DNA of 11,102 bases from Candidatus Thorarchaeota archaeon (GTDB taxonomy: Archaea > Asgardarchaeota > Thorarchaeia > Thorarchaeales > Thorarchaeaceae). The position numbers and the translations under genes are program-made. The first letter of the stretch is position 1. The number at the start of each line of letters is the position of its first letter. The notes below the pieces were generated by a model. The model ran no database searches, was not told the DNA's origin, and saw nothing but the letters and a program-made list of their open reading frames with translations. Positions 1,969 to 11,102 of this stretch are shown piece after piece. The stretch spans positions 222,855 to 233,956 of the forward strand of contig CP070761.1 of NCBI GenBank assembly GCA_020348985.1, given 5' to 3'.

Positions 1969-1992
1969 CACATAGACGTGGTGAAACTTCAA

Positions 1993-3294
1993 TTGAGTAA
2001 GAAAGAGAAGGAGCACCTGAACATGGTAGTGATCGGCCACGTCGACCACGGTAAATCCACGATGACTGGCCGGCTACTATACGAAACAGGTGCCGTAGAT
2101 GAGCGAACCTTCCAGCAACACAAGGAAGAAGCTGAAAAACTAGGACGCCCCTCATGGGCATGGGCTTTCGCTCTAGACAGACTGAAAGAAGAACGTGAAA
2201 GAGGCCTTACTATCGATATCGCCTTCTTCAAGTTCCTTACAGACAGGTACTACTATACGATTATCGATGCTCCAGGTCACAAAGACTTCATCAAAAACAT
2301 GATCACAGGAGCCTCTCAGGCAGACGTAGCCCTGCTTGTTGTATCAGCCAAGCGTGGTGAGTTTGAGGCCGGAGTTGGTCCTGGTGGTCAGACAAAGGAA
2401 CACGCGTATCTTGCTATGACTCTTGGTGTTCCAAGCATGATTGTCTGTATTAACAAGATGGATGACGAGAGCGTCAAGTACAGCAAGGACCGCTACGATG
2501 AGGTCAAGGAGGAAGTCGGTGGTTTCTTGAAGAGCATTGGATTCAAGACCGACAACATGCCCTTCATCCCAACTTCAGCACTTGATGCTGCTAACCTCAA
2601 GGAAAAGACTCCTGACTTCACACCTTGGTACGATGGTCCATCACTTCTAGAAGCACTTGATCTGGTTGAGCTTCCACCCAAGCCAGTCGACAAGCCACTC
2701 AGAGTTCCGATTAACGACGTCTACTCGATCAAGGGAGTCGGAACTGTCCCAGTTGGCCGTGTTGAGACTGGAATCATGAAGCCAGGTATGGAAGTCACAT
2801 TCATGCCTCCTGGCAAGACTGGAGAAGTCAAATCCATCGAGATGCACCATGAGCAACTTGCACAGGCAGTTCCCGGAGACAACATCGGTTTCAATATCCG
2901 AGGTATTGAACGAAAGGATCTTGGCCGAGGCGATGTTGCAGGTCCGAAAGACAAGCCTCCAACAGTTGCAGCTGATTATACAGGTCAAATCATGGTCATC
3001 CAGCACCCATCAGCGATCACAGTGGGCTACACACCAGTGATTCACGCCCATACTGCTCAGGTGGCTTGCAGATTCGACCAAATCATGCAAAAGATTGACC
3101 AGAGAAGCGGCCAGGTTATCGAGGAGAACCCTGATTTCGTTAAGAAGGGTGAGAGCATGGTTGCGAAACTTGTTCCACTCAAGCCCATGTGTATTGAGTC
3201 GTACAAGGAGTTCCCGCAGCTCGGTCGATTTGCTGTCCGTGACATGGGCATGACTGTTGCAGTCGGTGTCGTGACTGGCGTCACTAAGAAATAG
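1993..3294 (+). CDS. tuf: Translation elongation factor EF-1alpha (aEF1A)
   Basis: G1 GHVDHGKST, 'ERERGLTID', G3 DAPGH, G4 NKMD, '[13 protein letters not shown]', 'GDNIGFN', '[10 protein letters not shown]'. The start is placed at TTG 1993 ([10 protein letters not shown]) with SD-like GGTGA at 1980-1984. The track start GTG 1978 is in the same frame. Confidence 0.98.
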
Positions 3295-4062: not shown

Positions 4063-4479
4063 ATGATGGATGACCGATATCCTGCATATCATGATGAAGA
4101 GCCTACTTCTCCATCTCCTTTGAGATGGATTGCACTACCTCTTATCATCATACTAGGATCACTAACAGCCTACATTATCATGTTTGGATTTCCAGCTGAT
4201 CTAGCAACACCACTATTCATAGTCTCAATTCCAATGATTGTATTAGCATTATTCGCAGGTTGTCGATGGGCACAAGGTCGGAGCATGGGTCTCTCTACGG
4301 AGCATGATGAGGAGATATTCGAAGGCATGCGAAGACATGCACTTCCTGCAGACAGAGTGGGATTGGACACGATAAGGTGCACAGACTGTGGTCATTCGTT
4401 TGAGCTTGTCAACGCGAAGCCAGTTGATGACAAGGTTGTTCTATGCCCTTTCTGTGATGCTAGACTGTACATCGAATAG
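4063..4479 (+). CDS. Membrane protein with two TM helices and a C-terminal zinc ribbon
   Basis: Hydrophobic segments 'WIALPLIIILGSLTAYIIMFGF' and 'LFIVSIPMIVLALFAGC'. C-terminal CTDC-x18-CPFC. Confidence 0.75.
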   Translation: MMDDRYPAYHDEEPTSPSPLRWIALPLIIILGSLTAYIIMFGFPADLATPLFIVSIPMIVLALFAGCRWAQGRSMGLSTEHDEEIFEGMRRHALPADRVGLDTIRCTDCGHSFELVNAKPVDDKVVLCPFCDARLYIE

Positions 4480-4492
4480 CAAGTCTAATTGG

Positions 4493-4527
4493 AGAAATGG
4501 TGGCGCTGAGGGAGAGATTTGAACTCT
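4493..4527 (-). repeat. Duplicated 3' end of tRNA-Ser (att-like direct repeat, distal copy)
   Basis: agaaatgGtggcgctgagggagagatttgaactct matches 8175-8209 at 34/35 positions; the 27-bp core 4501-4527 is identical to 8183-8209. Confidence 0.95.
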
Positions 4528-4629
4528 TTTCTTCAAACAGTGTCCACCGAGGCATAACCATCCAACTCACTTTGCCAAATGGATTGAAAACATACCTTAG
4601 TGCTAATGGGTCCCAGACCAGCCATGAAT

Positions 4630-4860
4630 TCAGGCTTTCGTTATTCTAGAAGCGAAGAGAAAATCTGAGTTTTCATACATCTTGTATTCCACAACAACCC
4701 AGTCACCGATTTTCATGGACTCGACAGATTCAGCTGATTCAATCTTCAATTCCACCTTTTCGTGCCCATGAGTCTTGATTGTTACATAGCCGTATGACGC
4801 CCCTGTAGTGGGGTATCTCACAATGTGTAATCCAACAATTTCTCCCTTCATCTCAGGCAC
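4630..4860 (-). CDS. Small hypothetical protein, probable OB-fold
   Basis: 76 aa with a beta-rich pattern ('MKGEIVGLHIV', 'YGYVTIKT', 'MKIGDWVVVEY', 'LFASRITK'). GTG start preceded by SD-like AGGTGGTGGG. Confidence 0.7.
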   Translation of the reverse strand: MPEMKGEIVGLHIVRYPTTGASYGYVTIKTHGHEKVELKIESAESVESMKIGDWVVVEYKMYENSDFLFASRITKA

Positions 4861-4958
4861 CTAATCCCACCACCTTTTCCTCCACCAATGAAATAAGGGA
4901 ATCAGGGGAAGTCACCAAGTTTATTTCACGATTTCTCACATATCCTACGAAACACAAT

Positions 4959-5057
4959 TCATTCTCGACCGAAGAGACCTCGATGACTAATCATATCCAA
5001 CGTACGCTCAATATCATCTTGCCATCTGACTTCTCCAATACCTGCTATTCTTGTCAA
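4959..5057 (-). pseudogene. N-terminal remnant of an asparagine synthetase B-like (class II amidotransferase fold) gene
   Basis: The TTG at 5057 overlaps the TGA of the upstream gene (TTGA). It reads MTRIAGIGEVRWQDDIERTLDMISHRGLFGRE*, resembling the AsnB N-terminus 'MCGIAGI...ML..I.HRGPDG'. It stops after 32 codons. Confidence 0.6.
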
Positions 5058-6712
5058 TCCTTAGTACTCATACTACTCAAAATCACACCTAGTCCGAGTT
5101 TCTCGAGTCTTGTAATCTCATCTATGGGTTCATCCGCATCTTCGTCTATTGCCAAGCATGCACCGTTGACCAAGCGAGTTTCGATTTCGCCTTTCGCAAC
5201 TGGGTTCGACCTAAGGTGAGGGGCATCTAGAAGTCCAATCCGAACAGCGTCGATATATGCGGTCGGATCTGTCAGAGGGTCCCGATTTCTATCCGAGCTC
5301 AGTGTTGCTATCGCACGAATGAGTATCCTAGATTCCTGAACTAAATTCTCTTTCCGCTTTTTGACTTCCTTATCTTGAAGTGGATCAGGAGAGCCCAACA
5401 AACAGTTATGGATTACACGATGAGCAATCTTACAACTCTCGATTACTTCTTCAGATGTAGCAGCATGATCAGCCTCACAGAAACCAACTACGTGGACAAT
5501 ATGGGGCTTTAGCAGCATTCCAGTGGAAATTGAAACCGCTAACTGTCCTTTTCCAAGGTGAGGGTCTGGAGGATAAGAGAAGAGTCCCGGCCTGATCTGT
5601 CTGACAGAATTGAACCGATGATCATGCAATGATTCAATGAGCTCAATCTTTGCCAGCATTTTCGCCAAATCCATCTTCGGAGAGGTCCCAAGAGGAGTAT
5701 TGAGCATGTATTGAGCAACATAGTGATGAACGCCAGCAGCTTTCGCATTATAGGCAGATAAGTAGGCCATTGCAACTGCGATTGTGTCATGCGCACCTCG
5801 CAAGCTCCAATGATGTGCTTCATTTACTTCGACTGGAATGTTCCGAATAGCATGCCACTCATAGTTTACCTGATTCTCCTTAATGGCAGTTTCCAAAGAC
5901 CTGTTGCTTCTTCCATCGAGTTCGCTGTACCAAAGCAAAGGAGTCGCACACCAAGCGTTGTTGACAGTATCCTTGAGCATTTGTGCCCATCCTAGAAGGT
6001 CGCGTGTTCCACTGTAACATCTCAAAAGTGGATGGTTGCCCCTGCGTGATGCCTTGAACAACCTACGAAGGTCGTCAGCTTTTCTTAACGGAACTCCTCC
6101 ATCACCACGAAGATTTTCCGATATCTCTGAAGGCCGAAAGAATGATTCCTGTGCACTTTGGTCAGGGCCTATCGAGATCACATCCAGTACGGAAGCTTCT
6201 GCAATTTGCTCGACTCCTTTGATTGTATCTTCCACTGAGGGAAGGCCAAAGTGATGCCGGATGATTGGTATCGGACTCTTGACCATGATTCTTGCTATCA
6301 ATTCCTGGGGATGTCTTTCTGCTGCTTGAATGCGTGTACGACCTCTGAGAAAGGCAAGTGTATCTTCGTCAGTTGACAATCCCGTGAATATCTCTTCAAA
6401 TAGGCCAACCTCTTCAGCAATTGATTTGATTGGGGCAGTACAACCCAAAACCCATCTTTTCTTCTCCAATCCGTGTTCCAGAGCCTTGTCTCTAAGTTCT
6501 TGAAGTAGGTGTGTTGCACTCTCCAGTGAGAGCCGATAACTCACTCCAACGACATCTGGGTCTTGTTCCTTGACTTTTCTTATCAGGTGGTCCACTGATA
6601 CTGCTGGTCCGAGGAATACTGTGTCATGACCGTCGGCTTCAGCCAGAGAGAGAAATCGGAACACACCGGCAACGTGCACACAGTTTCCAATTGCAGCCCC
6701 AAGTATCTTCAA
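5054..6712 (-). CDS. Cobalamin-binding domain fused to a TIM-barrel; glutamate-mutase-like (S+E fusion) enzyme of unknown substrate
   Basis: N-terminal B12-binding domain 'GAAIGNCVHVAG...VFLG...DVVGVSYRL...WVLGCT'. The C-terminal ~400 aa have GlmE-like segments 'PLLRCYSGTRD', 'HVVGFCEADHAAT' and 'AVRIGLLDAP'. TTG start with SD GAGGTG (6721-6726), overlapping the upstream stop. Confidence 0.8.
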   Translation of the reverse strand: MKILGAAIGNCVHVAGVFRFLSLAEADGHDTVFLGPAVSVDHLIRKVKEQDPDVVGVSYRLSLESATHLLQELRDKALEHGLEKKRWVLGCTAPIKSIAEEVGLFEEIFTGLSTDEDTLAFLRGRTRIQAAERHPQELIARIMVKSPIPIIRHHFGLPSVEDTIKGVEQIAEASVLDVISIGPDQSAQESFFRPSEISENLRGDGGVPLRKADDLRRLFKASRRGNHPLLRCYSGTRDLLGWAQMLKDTVNNAWCATPLLWYSELDGRSNRSLETAIKENQVNYEWHAIRNIPVEVNEAHHWSLRGAHDTIAVAMAYLSAYNAKAAGVHHYVAQYMLNTPLGTSPKMDLAKMLAKIELIESLHDHRFNSVRQIRPGLFSYPPDPHLGKGQLAVSISTGMLLKPHIVHVVGFCEADHAATSEEVIESCKIAHRVIHNCLLGSPDPLQDKEVKKRKENLVQESRILIRAIATLSSDRNRDPLTDPTAYIDAVRIGLLDAPHLRSNPVAKGEIETRLVNGACLAIDEDADEPIDEITRLEKLGLGVILSSMSTKD

Positions 6713-7956
6713 ATGTCGTCCACCTCTATTTCATAGAGGTCCCAACCTTCCTGAAGACTAGCAACTTCTATTGGTCTCTTGCCATTCTGAACATATTCTA
6801 CAACGTCTAGAAGACTCATGCCCAATAATCCCATGCTGATGAGATTCCTTCCTGTGTGCCAGAAGTCACAATCATATAGATGACATGCGATATTGATTAC
6901 AGCATCAATGGCGGGAGTGTCAACACCGCACAGTTTTCCTAAACGAGAAATAGGTACGAGTCCTGTTGGGACATCTTCTAGAACATATCGATGTTGAAGT
7001 GTGTCTGGACTCCCGACTCCATCATATGCATCTATGCTTCGAAGACATTCACAGAGCGATTCACCTTCAGCACCATACGCGTCCTGAAGCCAATCCAACA
7101 GGGTCATTGGATTTCGTGAGAAGTGTTTTCCCACTTTCACTCGCTCAGTATCCATTCTTTCAATTAGCTGTCCTACTGATTCAGATATTGCATCATGATA
7201 ATGGTTGTATCCACCATGTTTTGACTCTAATAGTCCTGCACACAAGATTGTTGGAGCCGGGTGTAGCATCGCACCAACATTGTTCAGCCCTGTTTCCAAC
7301 ACAGTATTGGCACGAACAAGAGAAATTGGAAGTACCTTCAAGCGGCTTAGGTACTCTTGGTTTCTAGTTGCCGGAAACGCACTGACTTGAACTCGGTTTT
7401 TGATCTTAGATATCAAGACGGAACTTGACCCGGTGGTTCTGGAAACAAAGCTAAAGGTCTGCGCCTCTCCCAATAGAGCGTAGTCTCCATCCGGGCAGAC
7501 TCCAGCAATCTGTGCAAACTCTAATGCGCCGCCAGTACGTCCTGGCATCAGAAGAACTAGCTGATTCTCTTCTAAATGTGGAGACATCCTGTATGCGAAG
7601 AAACTGTGGGCCTGAGCTGGCACAGTCACAATCAGAATATCTCGATTGCGGATAGTCTCTTCCATGTTATCAGAAACAATGCGAATAGGAGCAAATCCAT
7701 TGATTACTCCATAGACATCAAGGCCACCTCGTTCTATGATCCCCCGAACATTGTTGAGTGTACGATTGTAGAGTGAAACATCAAAACCATGGAGAGCAAG
7801 GTATCCAGCAAGACCTCTACCTGCGTGTCCTCCGCCCAACACGGCTATCCTAACCGAATACGATTTTCTTTTCTCACTCTGCATCGTTTGAATACGCACC
7901 GAATCTCCAAGTTCAGTCTCTAATGATTGATTACTAATCTTGGCCTTGGTGACCAT
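6709..7956 (-). CDS. NAD/NADP-dependent octopine/nopaline (opine) dehydrogenase family protein
   Basis: Rossmann 'IAVLGGGHAG', 'GEAQTFSFVSR', 'LNNVGAMLHP', 'MDTERVKVG' and 'HRYVLEDVPTGLVP'. The start is ambiguous (GTG 7962, ATG 7956 or ATG 7884). Confidence 0.92.
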   Translation of the reverse strand: MVTKAKISNQSLETELGDSVRIQTMQSEKRKSYSVRIAVLGGGHAGRGLAGYLALHGFDVSLYNRTLNNVRGIIERGGLDVYGVINGFAPIRIVSDNMEETIRNRDILIVTVPAQAHSFFAYRMSPHLEENQLVLLMPGRTGGALEFAQIAGVCPDGDYALLGEAQTFSFVSRTTGSSSVLISKIKNRVQVSAFPATRNQEYLSRLKVLPISLVRANTVLETGLNNVGAMLHPAPTILCAGLLESKHGGYNHYHDAISESVGQLIERMDTERVKVGKHFSRNPMTLLDWLQDAYGAEGESLCECLRSIDAYDGVGSPDTLQHRYVLEDVPTGLVPISRLGKLCGVDTPAIDAVINIACHLYDCDFWHTGRNLISMGLLGMSLLDVVEYVQNGKRPIEVASLQEGWDLYEIEVDDI

Positions 7957-8075
7957 GTACACCCTTCAATTGACCAACTCAAGTTAGTAACCAATGAGCT
8001 CGTCTCATTCTCTTGGAAGCTTGGCTAATCCCTATTCCGCACATACCCTCGAATTTCAGCTTATTAGTATTATGA

Positions 8076-8095
8076 CCTTTATATACCTTATAAGG
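8076..8095. promoter_or_regulatory. TATA box with adjacent perfect palindrome upstream of the islet operon
   Basis: cc-TTTATATA (8078-8085; TATATAAA on the minus strand) abuts the perfect 10-bp palindrome CCTTATAAGG (8086-8095). Confidence 0.45.
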
Positions 8096-8174
8096 AGACA
8101 CCCATGCATACAATGTCCATCTTGGGGCATATAGACGAGATTATCCACTATTACTGTGCGGAACTGCAAATCGA

Positions 8175-8209
8175 AGAAATGATGGCGCTGAGGGAGAGAT
8201 TTGAACTCT
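8175..8209 (-). repeat. att-like direct repeat, tRNA-proximal copy
   Basis: agaaatgAtggcgctgagggagagatttgaactct. It covers the tRNA T-arm through CCA plus 8 nt of trailer. Confidence 0.95.
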
Positions 8210-8295
8210 CGAGTGCATAACACACTGGATGATTGCAGGACTGCCAATAGCATTCTTTAGCAATCCAGCGCCATACCAGGCTTGGCTACCTCAGC
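8183..8295 (-). tRNA. tRNA-Ser(GCT) with a 27-nt intron at 37/38 and encoded CCA
   Basis: Acceptor GCTGAGG/CCTCAGC with G73 and CCA; D-stem GCC/GGC; anticodon stem CTGGA/TCCAG with loop TT-GCT-AA after splicing; long variable arm GTGT-TAT-GCAC; T-arm GAGAG-TTCAAAT-CTCTC. Mature length is 86 nt. Confidence 0.97.
8231..8257 (-). other. tRNA intron with bulge-helix-bulge splice motif
   Basis: A 4-bp helix TTGC/GCAA is flanked by 3-nt bulges TA|A and TC|A. Intron sequence: AAGAATGCTATTGGCAGTCCTGCAATC. Confidence 0.92.
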
Positions 8296-8448
8296 ATGAG
8301 TAATGGCTTCGAGAAGGGTTCATCTCATAAACATTTTGACAGACTAGATAGAATCGATTTCAAATCTACCTGGCTGCAAGAAGATGTTGTATTGCGGAAC
8401 ACAAGCATCTTTTATTCAAATGATTACCTTCTCAGTGCAGGGATTCCG

Positions 8449-10365
8449 ATGGCGGGGGTGTCCGACAAGAAGCGCACACTGTTGATACTCTTCTTAGTTG
8501 GCTTGTTGGTAGGCGTGGGTTTCTATCTTGCCCCACTGAAAGAAACCAGATGGGGACCCGACGATTCTCAGAACGACGCCGATTCGGTTGCTATTCAGAA
8601 AGACATGGATCATGCCATTGAAGTTCGGTCAAATAGAGAACTCGAGCTGATTAGCAGGTCTGGAAGTGGAACGGCGGATAATCCTTTCATCATAGAGAAT
8701 CTCACAATCGGACTTAGTTCTCCACGGATTGATATTCGTCACGTGAATGTCCATTTCATAATTAGGAACGTATTTCTCCCGTCTTCAACTCCTTCTTCTA
8801 TGTACGGAATCTACTTTGAAGAGGTGGCATTTGGAACAATAGAATCTTGCAGGATTGACTTATACGCCACATATAGCATAGGGCTCTACAAATCCAATTC
8901 CTGTACTGTACATAACAATACAATTACAGGATCTCAGTACCAATCGATGTTGATATACAACTCCACTAACATCTTCGTTTCAGGAAACAAATTCCTGGAA
9001 CACAGAATAGAGCTAGGTTTTGTCAAAAACTGTACTATCAATGACAACGTGATTATTGATGCTGGACTTTCTCTCGGCAACGGCATGAATTGCAGCTTGG
9101 TCAACAACACCTTCACACGAGAAGGGATTACTGTTGATGGTGATTTGGTTGGCTATTTTGATCATATCATCTCCAACAACACTATAGATGGAAGACCAAT
9201 TGGATACTTCAATAATGTCAGTGACATCTCATTGAACCTTGAGGGTTACTCTATGGTGGTTCTCGCGAATTCGACGAATACTATACTGATGAATGGGCAC
9301 TTTCTGGATGTAACAACCGGAGTCTTCATCGCATTTTGCACCAACTCTAGAGCTATTGGAAATGTGATCCGAGATTCTGAATATGGAATCTCGGTTCATC
9401 GTTCAGATTCAATCTCAGTAACGAACAACACAATCTACAACATCACGAATTTTCCAATTCATCTGTATGGGTCACATAGATGCGTAGCAGAGGGGAATTC
9501 AATAGAGCGAATAGACACTTGGAACATTAACCAAGGTGTGAGGGTTCAGTCTTCAACAGAATGCAGAATTGAGAACAACGTGATTCATGGAACTGAGACT
9601 CCAATTTTCACTGTCTACTCAGTAGGCTGCATAGTTCACAACAACACCATCTATCGTGGTCACGGGCCTGGGGTTTTCATCTATCGTTCAACAAACATCA
9701 CTGTGATACAGAATACTGTTTATGAAAGTAGAGAGGGAGTCCATGTTCTTGCGTCGGATAGCTGCTCAATCTTCCATAATCACCTAATCAACAACACAAG
9801 TTCAGGCATTGGAGTCTATCATGCAGACTACCTACATATCTATGACAACACTATCGATGGAAATGGACACAATGGAATATCGCTCGATCTGTCTATGAAT
9901 TCAACACTTCTTGGCAATAACGTCACCAACAATATGCGCAACGGCGCCTTGATTTCTCATTCAAAGGGAACAGCAATTCTAGAGAACTCATTTTCGTACA
10001 ACAACCACTCTGGCCTTTTTCTTCACAACTCTGAAGATTGCGATATTAGAGGGAATGACATAGTGTTCAACAGAAGGTATGGAATTCGTATTGATTCAGA
10101 GTGCTCCTTCAACATCATTGTCCTCAACAGAATCGGATGGAACAACATCAGTAACGCTATCGATGACGGGACAACAAATTCATGGGATAATGGCACTCTT
10201 GGAAATCATTGGAGTGACTACAATGGCACCGGTGTCTATGTCATTCCAGGGACCGCAGGTGCAGTGGACAGATATCCGTCGCCATTGCTTGAAGCCCTGT
10301 CCCTCATAACCAATGAACAGATGGCGAATGTCCGGAATTCCCTTCGGGTTCAAGAACTAGAGTAA
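8449..10365 (+). CDS. Membrane-anchored right-handed parallel beta-helix (NosD/PbH1 repeat) surface protein
   Basis: N-terminal 'KKRTLLILFLVGLLVGVGFYLAPL' anchor; 'GSGTADNPFIIENL'; many 'GI.l..S.n..I.nN.I' repeats; terminal 'GNHWSDY..G.Y.IPG...D.YP'; numerous N-x-S/T sequons. The start is moved from 8296 (which abuts the tRNA 5' end) to ATG 8449. Confidence 0.88.
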   Translation: MAGVSDKKRTLLILFLVGLLVGVGFYLAPLKETRWGPDDSQNDADSVAIQKDMDHAIEVRSNRELELISRSGSGTADNPFIIENLTIGLSSPRIDIRHVNVHFIIRNVFLPSSTPSSMYGIYFEEVAFGTIESCRIDLYATYSIGLYKSNSCTVHNNTITGSQYQSMLIYNSTNIFVSGNKFLEHRIELGFVKNCTINDNVIIDAGLSLGNGMNCSLVNNTFTREGITVDGDLVGYFDHIISNNTIDGRPIGYFNNVSDISLNLEGYSMVVLANSTNTILMNGHFLDVTTGVFIAFCTNSRAIGNVIRDSEYGISVHRSDSISVTNNTIYNITNFPIHLYGSHRCVAEGNSIERIDTWNINQGVRVQSSTECRIENNVIHGTETPIFTVYSVGCIVHNNTIYRGHGPGVFIYRSTNITVIQNTVYESREGVHVLASDSCSIFHNHLINNTSSGIGVYHADYLHIYDNTIDGNGHNGISLDLSMNSTLLGNNVTNNMRNGALISHSKGTAILENSFSYNNHSGLFLHNSEDCDIRGNDIVFNRRYGIRIDSECSFNIIVLNRIGWNNISNAIDDGTTNSWDNGTLGNHWSDYNGTGVYVIPGTAGAVDRYPSPLLEALSLITNEQMANVRNSLRVQELE

Positions 10366-10400: not shown

Positions 10401-11102
10401 GTGATAGTGAACGTGGTGGGGAACAGTCAGATTCCATCTTTCTTTATGCTATTGACATTGATCATCGCAAGCTGTATGATTACTCCTTTACCATCTTCGG
10501 ATCTCGAGAATATTGAAGCTGAATATGGCGGAACATGGGATACTGATGGACAAGATACCTGCGAGGATCTCGAGATTAATAAGCATGGTGAAGCATATAC
10601 TGTAGGCACATCAATCCCTTCCCCAGGGAATCTAGATATCTCTCTTGTCAAATGGAATTCTGAGGCCAATGTGACATGGGTTAGAGTCATGCATGGCATA
10701 AACAGCAGCTATCCAAGGGCCAACGCGCGTGCTGTCGAAACATTTGGCGACTCGGTTTTTGTTGTCGGAGGATGTCAGAATCTGCTAAATGATGTCAGGA
10801 TGCTGTTAGCCAAGTGGTACTCAAACGGGACATTGGCATGGTATGTCATAAGTGAAGAAACCAGAGAAGGCACCGATCTGGGAATTGCGATTGACGGGTC
10901 CATCTATGTTGTCGGTCTAGCCAACGTAACCCAACCCGGGCTTTTCCTCGCTAAGTTCAACTCGTCCAACGGACATCGCGAATGGATGAAGCGGTTTTCT
11001 GGCTACTATACCGGCTATCTACCAAGATTGGAAATCTCAACTGACGACCATGTCATAACTTTCACATCATCAACAGTCATCAGGTGGAAGCTAAATGGTG
11101 AG
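10401..11102 (+). CDS. Secreted beta-propeller repeat (SBBP-like) protein, 5' part only
   Basis: The frame is open to the window end. Signal-like 'FFMLLTLIIASC' is followed by repeats 'GEAYTVGT..DISLVKWNSEANVTW', 'DSVFVVGG..MLLAKWYSNGTLAW' and 'DGSIYVVG..LFLAKFNSSNGHREW'. The start is uncertain (GTG 10401, 10407, 10413 or 10416). Not in the ORF track. Confidence 0.8.
   Translation, partial: MIVNVVGNSQIPSFFMLLTLIIASCMITPLPSSDLENIEAEYGGTWDTDGQDTCEDLEINKHGEAYTVGTSIPSPGNLDISLVKWNSEANVTWVRVMHGINSSYPRANARAVETFGDSVFVVGGCQNLLNDVRMLLAKWYSNGTLAWYVISEETREGTDLGIAIDGSIYVVGLANVTQPGLFLAKFNSSNGHREWMKRFSGYYTGYLPRLEISTDDHVITFTSSTVIRWKLNGE

Follow-up and report, generated by a model that had tools for sequence, protein, structure and literature searches.

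A widespread cassette of an opine dehydrogenase and a glutamate-mutase-like B12 enzyme, beside a tRNA-Ser gene in a Thorarchaeota archaeon

The cassette at the locus and across relatives

The window analysed here is a stretch of 11,102 nucleotides from contig CP070761.1 of a Candidatus Thorarchaeota archaeon (assembly GCA_020348985.1). It is archaeal, with an aEF1A gene at 1978–3294 and closest homologues in Thorarchaeota and other Asgard archaea. Its minus strand carries three head-to-tail frames, hereafter the cassette, joined by a TTGA overlap at each of the two junctions: an intact gene for an opine dehydrogenase, an intact gene for a single-chain B12 enzyme in which a cobalamin-binding domain precedes a GlmE-like triosephosphate isomerase (TIM) barrel, and a short relic of a gene for an AsnB-like amidoligase (Table 1). 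We argue below that the cassette probably encodes a widespread pathway to a rearranged acidic opine, with an amidation step that is optional and has been lost in this archaeon.

An earlier note on this DNA, made from its letters, had read the three frames and their identical overlaps as one unit made up of an opine dehydrogenase, a glutamate-mutase-like B12 fusion and an AsnB-like ligase. Both junctions are confirmed in the sequence letters, and the overlapping gene ends, together with the recurrence of the trio at related loci, uphold the single unit. In a Thorarchaeota relative with the complete trio (L002), a 4-nt overlap is present at both junctions, as read from gene coordinates rather than from letters (4207–5391, 5388–7049 and 7046–8395). 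The stretch TATATAAAG at 8077–8085 on the minus strand, approximately 115 nt upstream of the start that gives the longest dehydrogenase frame, is a candidate archaeal TATA box for the operon.

Table 1. Features of the cassette and of its tRNA-Ser surroundings in the window
Feature	Coordinates	Strand	Evidence or remark
Opine dehydrogenase (Octopine_DH family, ArODH/CENDH-like)	6709..7962	-	Intact; Pfam PF02317, E = 2e-43; 1bg6, E = 6e-61
TTGA stop/start overlap, dehydrogenase/B12 gene	6709..6712	-	Letters gacgacaTTTGAagatactt: dehydrogenase stop and B12 TTG start
Single-chain B12 enzyme, N-terminal cobalamin-binding domain and GlmE-like TIM barrel	5054..6712	-	Intact, 552 aa
TTGA stop/start overlap, B12 gene/AsnB-like relic	5054..5057	-	Letters aaggaTTGAcaaga: B12 stop and TTG start of the third frame
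AsnB-like amidoligase relic, 32 codons	4959..5057	-	tblastn with the L002 AsnB-like protein
ORF of 76 aa inside the islet, downstream of the relic	4630..4860	-	List of open reading frames (ORFs); no Pfam family at E<=0.01
Direct repeat at the distal end of the islet, next to the Zn-ribbon gene (displaced 3′ fragment of tRNA-Ser)	4487..4527		
Direct repeat at the complete tRNA (3′ end and trailer)	8169..8209		41 nt, 93% identical to 4487–4527
Intron-containing tRNA-Ser(GCU), 3′ end borders the islet	8183..8295	-	Rfam tRNA, 49.4 bits; ARAGORN intron option c[8183,8295]

The cassette is far from confined to this archaeon. A pattern scan with one genome per species returned 597 matching stretches, and relatives are encoded by at least 591 stretches of this collection, which come from both bacteria and archaea and are in many cases archaeal. 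The best 80 were analysed together with metagenome loci, and synteny was counted over 82 loci from many phyla. An opine dehydrogenase gene adjoins the B12 gene in 76 of the 82, lying upstream of it (after it in one locus, L036), and the loci that lack the dehydrogenase are mostly interrupted by a contig end. A full-length AsnB-like gene follows immediately downstream of the B12 gene in 25 loci; a Ddl-like ATP-grasp ligase is found nearby in 10 others, never together with the AsnB-like gene, and any further neighbour of the B12 gene occurs in 11 loci or fewer. The complete trio is present in Thorarchaeota, Bacillota, Bacteroidota, Ignavibacteriota, Aminicenantes, Chloroflexota and Methanobacteriota. 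The conserved linkage that the earlier note had proposed to look for is therefore found, both for the dehydrogenase and for a full-length ligase gene. Pairwise identities of the dehydrogenase correlate with those of the B12 protein (rho = 0.75), and because the two genes are adjacent in nearly all loci, overlap at their ends and correlate in identity, we treat their products as acting in one pathway. A 927-aa dehydrogenase–B12 ‘fusion’ in one locus (L033) was set aside as an ORF-calling artefact in high-GC DNA, its N-terminal part being a wrong-frame stretch rich in Arg, Pro and Gly.

Two observations concern the genes around the cassette in relatives. In Aminicenantes-type loci (L039, L044, L060, L072 and L089), genes of one sequence cluster follow the B12 gene instead of a ligase; they are paired in four loci, one copy falls within the available L044 stretch, and the L039 pair are TldD/PmbA metallopeptidases by Pfam. 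Upstream of the Thorarchaeota trio (L002, 405–2809) lie split IPCT/DIPPS-like genes, of a kind used to make inositol-phosphate solutes or lipids, together with a CbiR-like gene resembling a cobamide-remodelling phosphodiesterase. All of these L002 matches fall under their family cut-offs and were not used as evidence.

The combination of genes is already known, having been flagged in 2009 as an unsolved problem. [quoted passage not shown] Our literature search found no paper that characterises the pathway or gives a later functional assignment, and a search for links of an opine or octopine dehydrogenase to cobalamin, to glutamate mutase, to ydaO or to cyclic di-AMP (c-di-AMP) returned nothing relevant beyond the 2009 paper. 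The earlier note's statement that no characterised pathway has this combination holds in so far as no characterising paper was found, but the combination itself had been published (PMC2667541).

The dehydrogenase, the B12 enzyme and the optional ligase

The dehydrogenase scores 148.5 bits against the Octopine_DH family, for which the cut-off is 30, and aligns over its whole length (residues 38–385) with the Arthrobacter opine dehydrogenase 1bg6 (ArODH). Its start codon is uncertain (GTG at 7962, ATG at 7956 or ATG at 7884), and homologues align from residue ~24–38. The N-terminal Rossmann motif GxGxxG/A is present as GGGHAG at residues 42–47, and the catalytic residues of 1bg6, His, Arg and Asp, are kept (‘mlHPap’ and ‘hRYvleDv’ in the 1bg6 alignment). 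H208, R299 and D304 are invariant in the alignment of cassette dehydrogenases (A3), with R..ED in 76/76 homologues; in ArODH, we take H202 and D297 to be the catalytic His–Asp dyad and R292 the catalytic Arg, on grounds that come in part from PMC10787698. The earlier assignment of this frame to the opine dehydrogenases is borne out by these family matches and conserved residues.

Telek et al. (2024) studied six opine dehydrogenases from hot springs (mODH) that preferred L-aspartate, L-glutamate and their sulfonate analogues with pyruvate and NADPH, and found by reciprocal double mutants that the pair Arg-111 and Gly-198 switches the preference from L-Phe to L-Asp; ArODH, with Ala-111/Asn-198, prefers hydrophobic amino acids (PMC10787698). 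The window dehydrogenase has Arg at ArODH position 111 (G-R-T-G-G) and Gly at position 198 (N-V-G-A-M-L-H). Among cassette-linked dehydrogenases, Arg-111 is present in 74/75 and Gly-198 in 74/76. These sequence features place the window dehydrogenase firmly in an NAD(P)H-dependent subtype predicted to be specific for acidic amino acids, and its overlapping gene end marks it as translationally coupled to the B12 enzyme.

The B12 protein matches the Pfam B12-binding domain at 5e-9. Its AlphaFold (AF2) model, built from 22 homologues, has a predicted local distance difference test (pLDDT) score of 91 and a predicted template modelling (pTM) score of 0.90, and a Foldseek search with this model places GlmE at the top (6h9e_B and 1cb7_B, E = 4e-14 and 2e-13, TM score 0.65 by target), followed by lysine 5,6-aminomutase, ornithine 4,5-aminomutase and methylmalonyl-CoA mutase (MCM). 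As judged from the predicted model, the fold matches are all adenosylcobalamin (AdoCbl) radical isomerases. With GlmE as the best structural match and a B12-binding domain in the same 552-aa chain, the description of the second frame as a glutamate-mutase-like B12 fusion stands. The cobalamin motif is C-x-H-x-x-G (C11, H13 and G16), in which Cys replaces the Asp of the canonical DxHxxG; across 82 homologues, the first position is Cys in 74 and Asp in 6. Many Arg residues of the protein are invariant, among them R152, R210, R231, R268, R305 and R374.

GlmL, an accessory protein, has its gene between the two genes of glutamate mutase. A GlmL/MutL-type gene (PF13941, 1e-148) directly follows the B12 gene in one relative (L030), genes that cluster with it by sequence follow the B12 gene in three others (L062, L064 and L067), and the B12 enzymes of the database homologues P0154, P0162 and P0164 carry a MutL fusion. 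No PF13941 gene was found in the window's genome, which is 86% complete, and no canonical GlmE (PF06368) scored above cut-off in five carrier genomes or in the window's own genome. The latter encodes adenosyltransferases of the PduO and CobA types. Taken together, the fold matches, the MutL partners in relatives and the adenosyltransferases suggest that the B12 protein is an AdoCbl isomerase rather than a methyl carrier. When the dehydrogenase and the B12 protein were modelled as a complex from alignments A3 and A1, the score was 0.00, which counts neither way.

The B12 family also varies in its domains. One database homologue (P0139) has a weak M15-peptidase-like match (E = 5e-4, under the Pfam cut-off), and a sister family of 600–635 aa (P0167, P0170, P0218 and others) shares ~33–36% identity over the barrel and has a longer N-terminal region.

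The third frame of the window matches residues 1–32 of the 449-aa AsnB-like protein of L002, with 18/32 residues identical (56%; E = 7e-6 in a small search). The rest of that protein, ~417 codons, has no tblastn match in window 4400–5200, and the SGGxDS PP-loop synthetase domain is absent from the window. Read from this alignment, the remaining ~417 codons have been deleted and the frame is a stump, so that the pathway here would comprise at most two enzymes. The N-terminal Cys nucleophile (MCGI...) is not found in the relic, which reads M-T-R-I-A-G; L002 has T at the same position. A cognate AsnB-like gene elsewhere in the window's genome was looked for, and only a general paralogue with 26% identity came up. 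As to the AsnB-like ligase of the trio, what the earlier note proposed applies to the 25 loci with a full-length gene but not to the window, as its own wording, which asked for a ‘full-length asnB-like gene’ in relatives, implied.

Loss of the ligase gene is not peculiar to the window. Two loci of the same archaeal family carry stumps of ~22 codons (L124, G005:C42) and ~24 codons (L125, G020:C78), with breakpoints unlike that after the window's 32 codons, and the genome of the second, G020, holds two cassette copies, one with the stump and one with an intact AsnB-like gene (L126, G020:C48). On the tree of B12 proteins, where the window protein groups with two Thorarchaeota loci having an intact AsnB-like gene (support 98), the distribution of this gene takes 12 gains or losses to explain, and well-supported branches force at least 8 of them. 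Since the AsnB-like gene and the ATP-grasp gene occur in different loci and never in both, and since a glutathione-synthetase/RimK-type ATP-grasp domain is fused to the B12/GlmE-like protein in one homologue (P0135), we regard the ligase as an accessory step. On sequence grounds, it is a recurrent yet optional third step that appears to have been lost repeatedly.

In relatives, the PP-loop motif SGGxDS is present in 24/24 AsnB-like proteins. At the position of the glutaminase Cys, most of them carry Ala, Ser, Thr or Gly, and only L029, L033 and L058 have Cys; the N-terminal domain is ~55 residues shorter than that of asparagine synthetase B. The L002 protein matches AsnB at E = 1.5e-50, CarA at 2.3e-17 and beta-lactam synthetase at 1.1e-15. 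The ligase would thus probably cap a carboxylate as an amide, without glutamine. A PP-loop gene that follows the cassette in a Theionarchaea locus (L006) was rejected as such a ligase, as it scores 311 bits against the NadE equivalog cut-off of 255 and is probably a housekeeping NAD synthetase.

The riboswitch of bacterial loci and the tRNA-Ser islet

In 23 bacterial loci, the cassette is preceded by a c-di-AMP riboswitch. A full-length match to RF00379 (c-di-AMP, ydaO/kimA; gathering score 38) lies directly upstream of the dehydrogenase gene in 13 of the 28 loci scanned with Rfam, at 68–118 bits. A model made from these 13 matches (R1) finds 23 riboswitches in 86 sources (1.18 Mb), all at the same position and on the same strand, the ten extra ones at 77–124 bits. 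The carriers belong to Bacillota and Armatimonadota, apart from a few bacterial contigs without classification. Of the cultured carriers of the cassette, Caldanaerobacter subterraneus and Thermoanaerobacter thermocopriae (L021 and L029) combine the trio with the riboswitch, and Tepidanaerobacter acetatoxydans has the pair.

Riboswitches for c-di-AMP are off-switches whose targets in Bacillales and Clostridia are mostly transporters of ions, osmoprotectants or amino acids (PMC9960051), and c-di-AMP is a main regulator of potassium and osmolyte balance (PMC8517857). An off-switch from an osmotic and ion regulon suggests that the product is made at low c-di-AMP, and would suit a role as compatible solute or as organic counter-ion for K+. 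Of the roles that the earlier note had offered, the osmolyte gains support from the riboswitch at 23 bacterial loci, while no result speaks for a metallophore or for a secondary metabolite.

In the window, the cassette lies between a tRNA-Ser(GCU) gene and a Zn-ribbon gene, bracketed by two direct repeats 3.68 kb apart (Table 1), which delimit an islet of 3.7 kb. As is characteristic of elements that target tRNA genes, the islet is flanked on one side by the complete tRNA and on the other by a direct repeat copied from the 3′ part of that tRNA. Its ORFs encode the dehydrogenase, the B12 enzyme, the relic and the 76-aa product, and no integrase or recombinase gene is among them. The islet DNA from 4528 to 4958 (431 bases) is unique in the genome and matches none of the related loci.

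The same site differs in content between relatives. In G007, the sequence corresponding to window 4399–4527 aligns beside a homologue of the Zn-ribbon gene (L119, 8261–8138), with a fragment of the 3′ part of the same tRNA, and the neighbouring cargo is a different, orphan ORF of 490 aa (L119, 6525–7997). In G011, the DNA between the tRNA site and the Zn-ribbon gene holds three unrelated genes. The cassette is present in 12/24 genomes of the archaeal family, 10 of them with strong full-length matches, and the window copy is closer to that of another genus (74%) than to that of its own (66%). These observations fit a cassette that sits in a small integrated islet at tRNA-Ser(GCU), one that has lost its recombinase and most of its ligase gene. 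Given the tRNA gene with its 41-nt repeat, the variable content of the site in relatives and the greater closeness to another genus, the islet was probably gained by horizontal transfer.

Two further genes lie on the plus strand. The first, at 8296–10365, encodes a NosD-like parallel beta-helix protein of 689 aa that has a hydrophobic stretch near its N terminus, and next after it, at 10401–11102, lies a gene for a beta-propeller-repeat protein that runs past the window end.

A proposed pathway, its alternatives and known systems

In the pathway that we consider probable, the dehydrogenase would join an acidic L-amino acid, similar to Asp or Glu, with pyruvate to give an N-(1-carboxyethyl) amino acid, and the AdoCbl enzyme would carry out a radical 1,2-rearrangement of the carbon skeleton. 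This rearrangement could affect either the amino acid before condensation, in a shift of the glutamate to 3-methylaspartate type, or the opine that condensation yields. At loci with a ligase, whether AsnB-like or a Ddl-like ATP-grasp enzyme, that ligase would convert one carboxylate to an amide; the archaeon of the window would make at most the non-amidated product. As to the role of the product, we tentatively propose, by analogy with the known c-di-AMP regulon, a small organic anion or compatible solute made at low c-di-AMP, that is, under osmotic or potassium stress, which seems possible but somewhat short of probable. It is the riboswitch, seen only in bacterial loci, that leads to this role.

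Several results weigh against this proposal. The B12 protein matches MutE (Met_asp_mut_E) below the cut-off, at 16.8 against 26.6 bits and over residues 377–523 only, its cobalamin motif is CxHxxG and not the canonical DxHxxG, and its B12 domain is nearer in sequence to the corrinoid proteins of methyltransferases than to GlmS. A profile search of PDB sequences with alignment A1 reaches matches to the B12 domain only and no GlmE. The kcat/KM of a related mODH on L-Asp is low, at 0.04 per s per mM (PMC10787698); the native pair may therefore differ from Asp and pyruvate, and the enzyme may naturally use a related amino acid. No riboswitch was found, with RF00379 at E<=1 or with model R1, in the window, in the archaeal loci or in nine scanned loci of other bacterial phyla, and the stress link is thus carried over to the archaeon from bacteria. 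Moreover, cell-wall genes and amino-acid transporters are also under c-di-AMP riboswitches (PMC9960051), and TldD/PmbA peptidase or 2-oxoacid:ferredoxin oxidoreductase neighbours at some loci would fit catabolism as well.

Catabolism is the alternative to which we give most room, although we judge it unlikely. In fermenting anaerobes, the pair would then degrade either an acidic amino acid or a compound resembling an opine: the dehydrogenase would run oxidatively and free a 2-oxoacid and an amino acid, and the B12 mutase would rearrange the skeleton as in the fermentation of glutamate, lysine or ornithine. The carriers are mostly anaerobes that ferment peptides or amino acids, and the known ornithine and lysine fermentations likewise pair a B12 mutase with a CH–NH dehydrogenase. 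The TldD/PmbA pairs lie downstream of the cassette in Aminicenantes and the oxidoreductase genes upstream of it in Tissierellia, but the oxidoreductase genes are located upstream of the riboswitch, hence probably in a separate transcription unit, and were rejected as part of the cassette. Amide ligases that consume ATP and an off-switch governed by c-di-AMP suit synthesis better, and no transporter, lyase or thiolase recurs beside the pair. A different reading of the B12 protein, as a corrinoid carrier or methyltransferase of the methylcobalamin type in a cassette that methylates or demethylates an amine, draws on the closest sequence matches of its N-terminal domain, which are corrinoid proteins of methyltransferase systems (4jgi, MttC and MetH), and on the name ‘methionine synthase’ in public annotations. 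Against it stand the fold matches of the whole model, the adjacent or fused GlmL/MutL-type partners and the lack of any recurring methyltransferase subunits (MtaA/MtaB-like) nearby, which together make it very improbable.

The two remaining alternatives keep a synthetic pathway and turn on what the ligase does. In the route suggested in the earlier note, the B12 enzyme would convert an N-(1-carboxyethyl) to an N-(2-carboxyethyl) amino acid, which the AsnB-like protein would cyclise to a lactam. Loss of the glutaminase Cys in most cassette AsnB-like proteins would fit the use of a substrate amine over glutamine, their PP-loop is intact, and beta-lactam synthetase, CarA and lasso cyclases also lack this Cys. 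However, the similarity to AsnB is far above that to beta-lactam synthetase or CarA, the ligase is missing from ~70% of loci, with a Ddl-like ATP-grasp enzyme instead in others, which argues for simple amide capping, the ligase gene is deleted in the window, and no other lactam-pathway genes are present; we consider this route just as improbable as a corrinoid carrier. Least probable, by a shade, is a cell-envelope role, in which the cassette would make an unusual amino acid for the stem peptide of peptidoglycan and the ligases would add or amidate it. Cell-wall genes of Actinobacteria are under c-di-AMP riboswitches (PMC9960051), the accessory genes are similar to D-Ala-D-Ala ligase, some loci have lgt after the operon and one homologue has the M15-peptidase-like match given above. 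AsnB-like enzymes amidate peptidoglycan in Gram-positives. On the other side, Asgard archaea and Theionarchaea, for which we know of no peptidoglycan synthesis, also carry the cassette, Ddl-like ligase included, and most loci have no envelope genes nearby.

Returning to the rearranged acidic opine, its strongest form would be a new class of metabolite: an opine rearranged, in its acidic part or as a whole, by a dedicated AdoCbl mutase, serving as an anion or compatible solute under bacterial c-di-AMP control and optionally amidated. As a whole, we hold this form to be rather doubtful. If it were true, the B12 protein would be the first AdoCbl isomerase with a substrate from an opine pathway, and the first biosynthetic, non-fermentative enzyme of the glutamate-mutase type common to Asgard archaea and many anaerobic bacteria; to our knowledge, few kinds of B12-dependent isomerase reaction exist, and a new one is rare. 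The orphan family, with its at least 591 stretches from bacteria and archaea, cultured thermophiles included, is large and has been without an assignment since 2009. Three clues, namely the subtype specificity of the dehydrogenase, the GlmL-type partners and the c-di-AMP off-switch, make a direct assay possible. What the window adds is that the amide ligase appears dispensable and repeatedly lost, and that the cassette probably moves as a small tRNA-gene islet in Asgard archaea.

Each part of the cassette has a counterpart among known systems. The window B12 protein matches the family of Zhang et al. by description, not by sequence comparison, and the GlmE-like barrel, the MutL link, the riboswitch and the specificity of the dehydrogenase were not assigned in the 2009 prediction (PMC2667541). 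Bacterial copies of the cassette resemble the known members of the RF00379 regulon, as opposed to the window and the archaeal loci searched, in which no riboswitch was found. The AsnB-like proteins of relatives match the synthetase domain of E. coli AsnB (1ct9) strongly, with the SGGxDS PP-loop in both, and the AsnO family of NAGGN amidotransferases more weakly; NAGGN amidotransferase serves osmolyte synthesis. Beta-lactam synthetase (1jgt) and CarA (1q15) share with most of them a dead glutaminase site but are far less similar than AsnB.

The dehydrogenase is homologous over its full length to ArODH/CENDH (1bg6), with the same catalytic His, Arg and Asp, and has the Arg-111/Gly-198 pair in common with the hot-spring mODHs (PMC10787698). 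The blocks NPGRTGGALEF, AEAQTF, NIGAxFHP and RYIxEDVP are likewise common to the mODHs (supplement of PMC10787698) and the cassette alignment; the mODH paper makes no mention of genomic context or B12 (PMC10787698). Similar to glutamate mutase (GlmS/GlmE with GlmL/MutL; EC 5.4.99.1, Clostridium cochlearium; 1cb7 and 6h9e), the B12 enzyme combines the cobalamin-binding Rossmann-like domain with a TIM barrel in its predicted fold, keeps the His and Gly of the base-off motif and has MutL-type partners adjacent or fused in relatives. Its identity to GlmE is only ~14–15%, and, unlike glutamate mutase, it is partnered with an opine dehydrogenase, methylaspartase not being among the recurring neighbours. 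Whereas glutamate mutase is built from two subunits, the cassette enzyme is one chain in sigma-then-epsilon order, as are all its full-length homologues.

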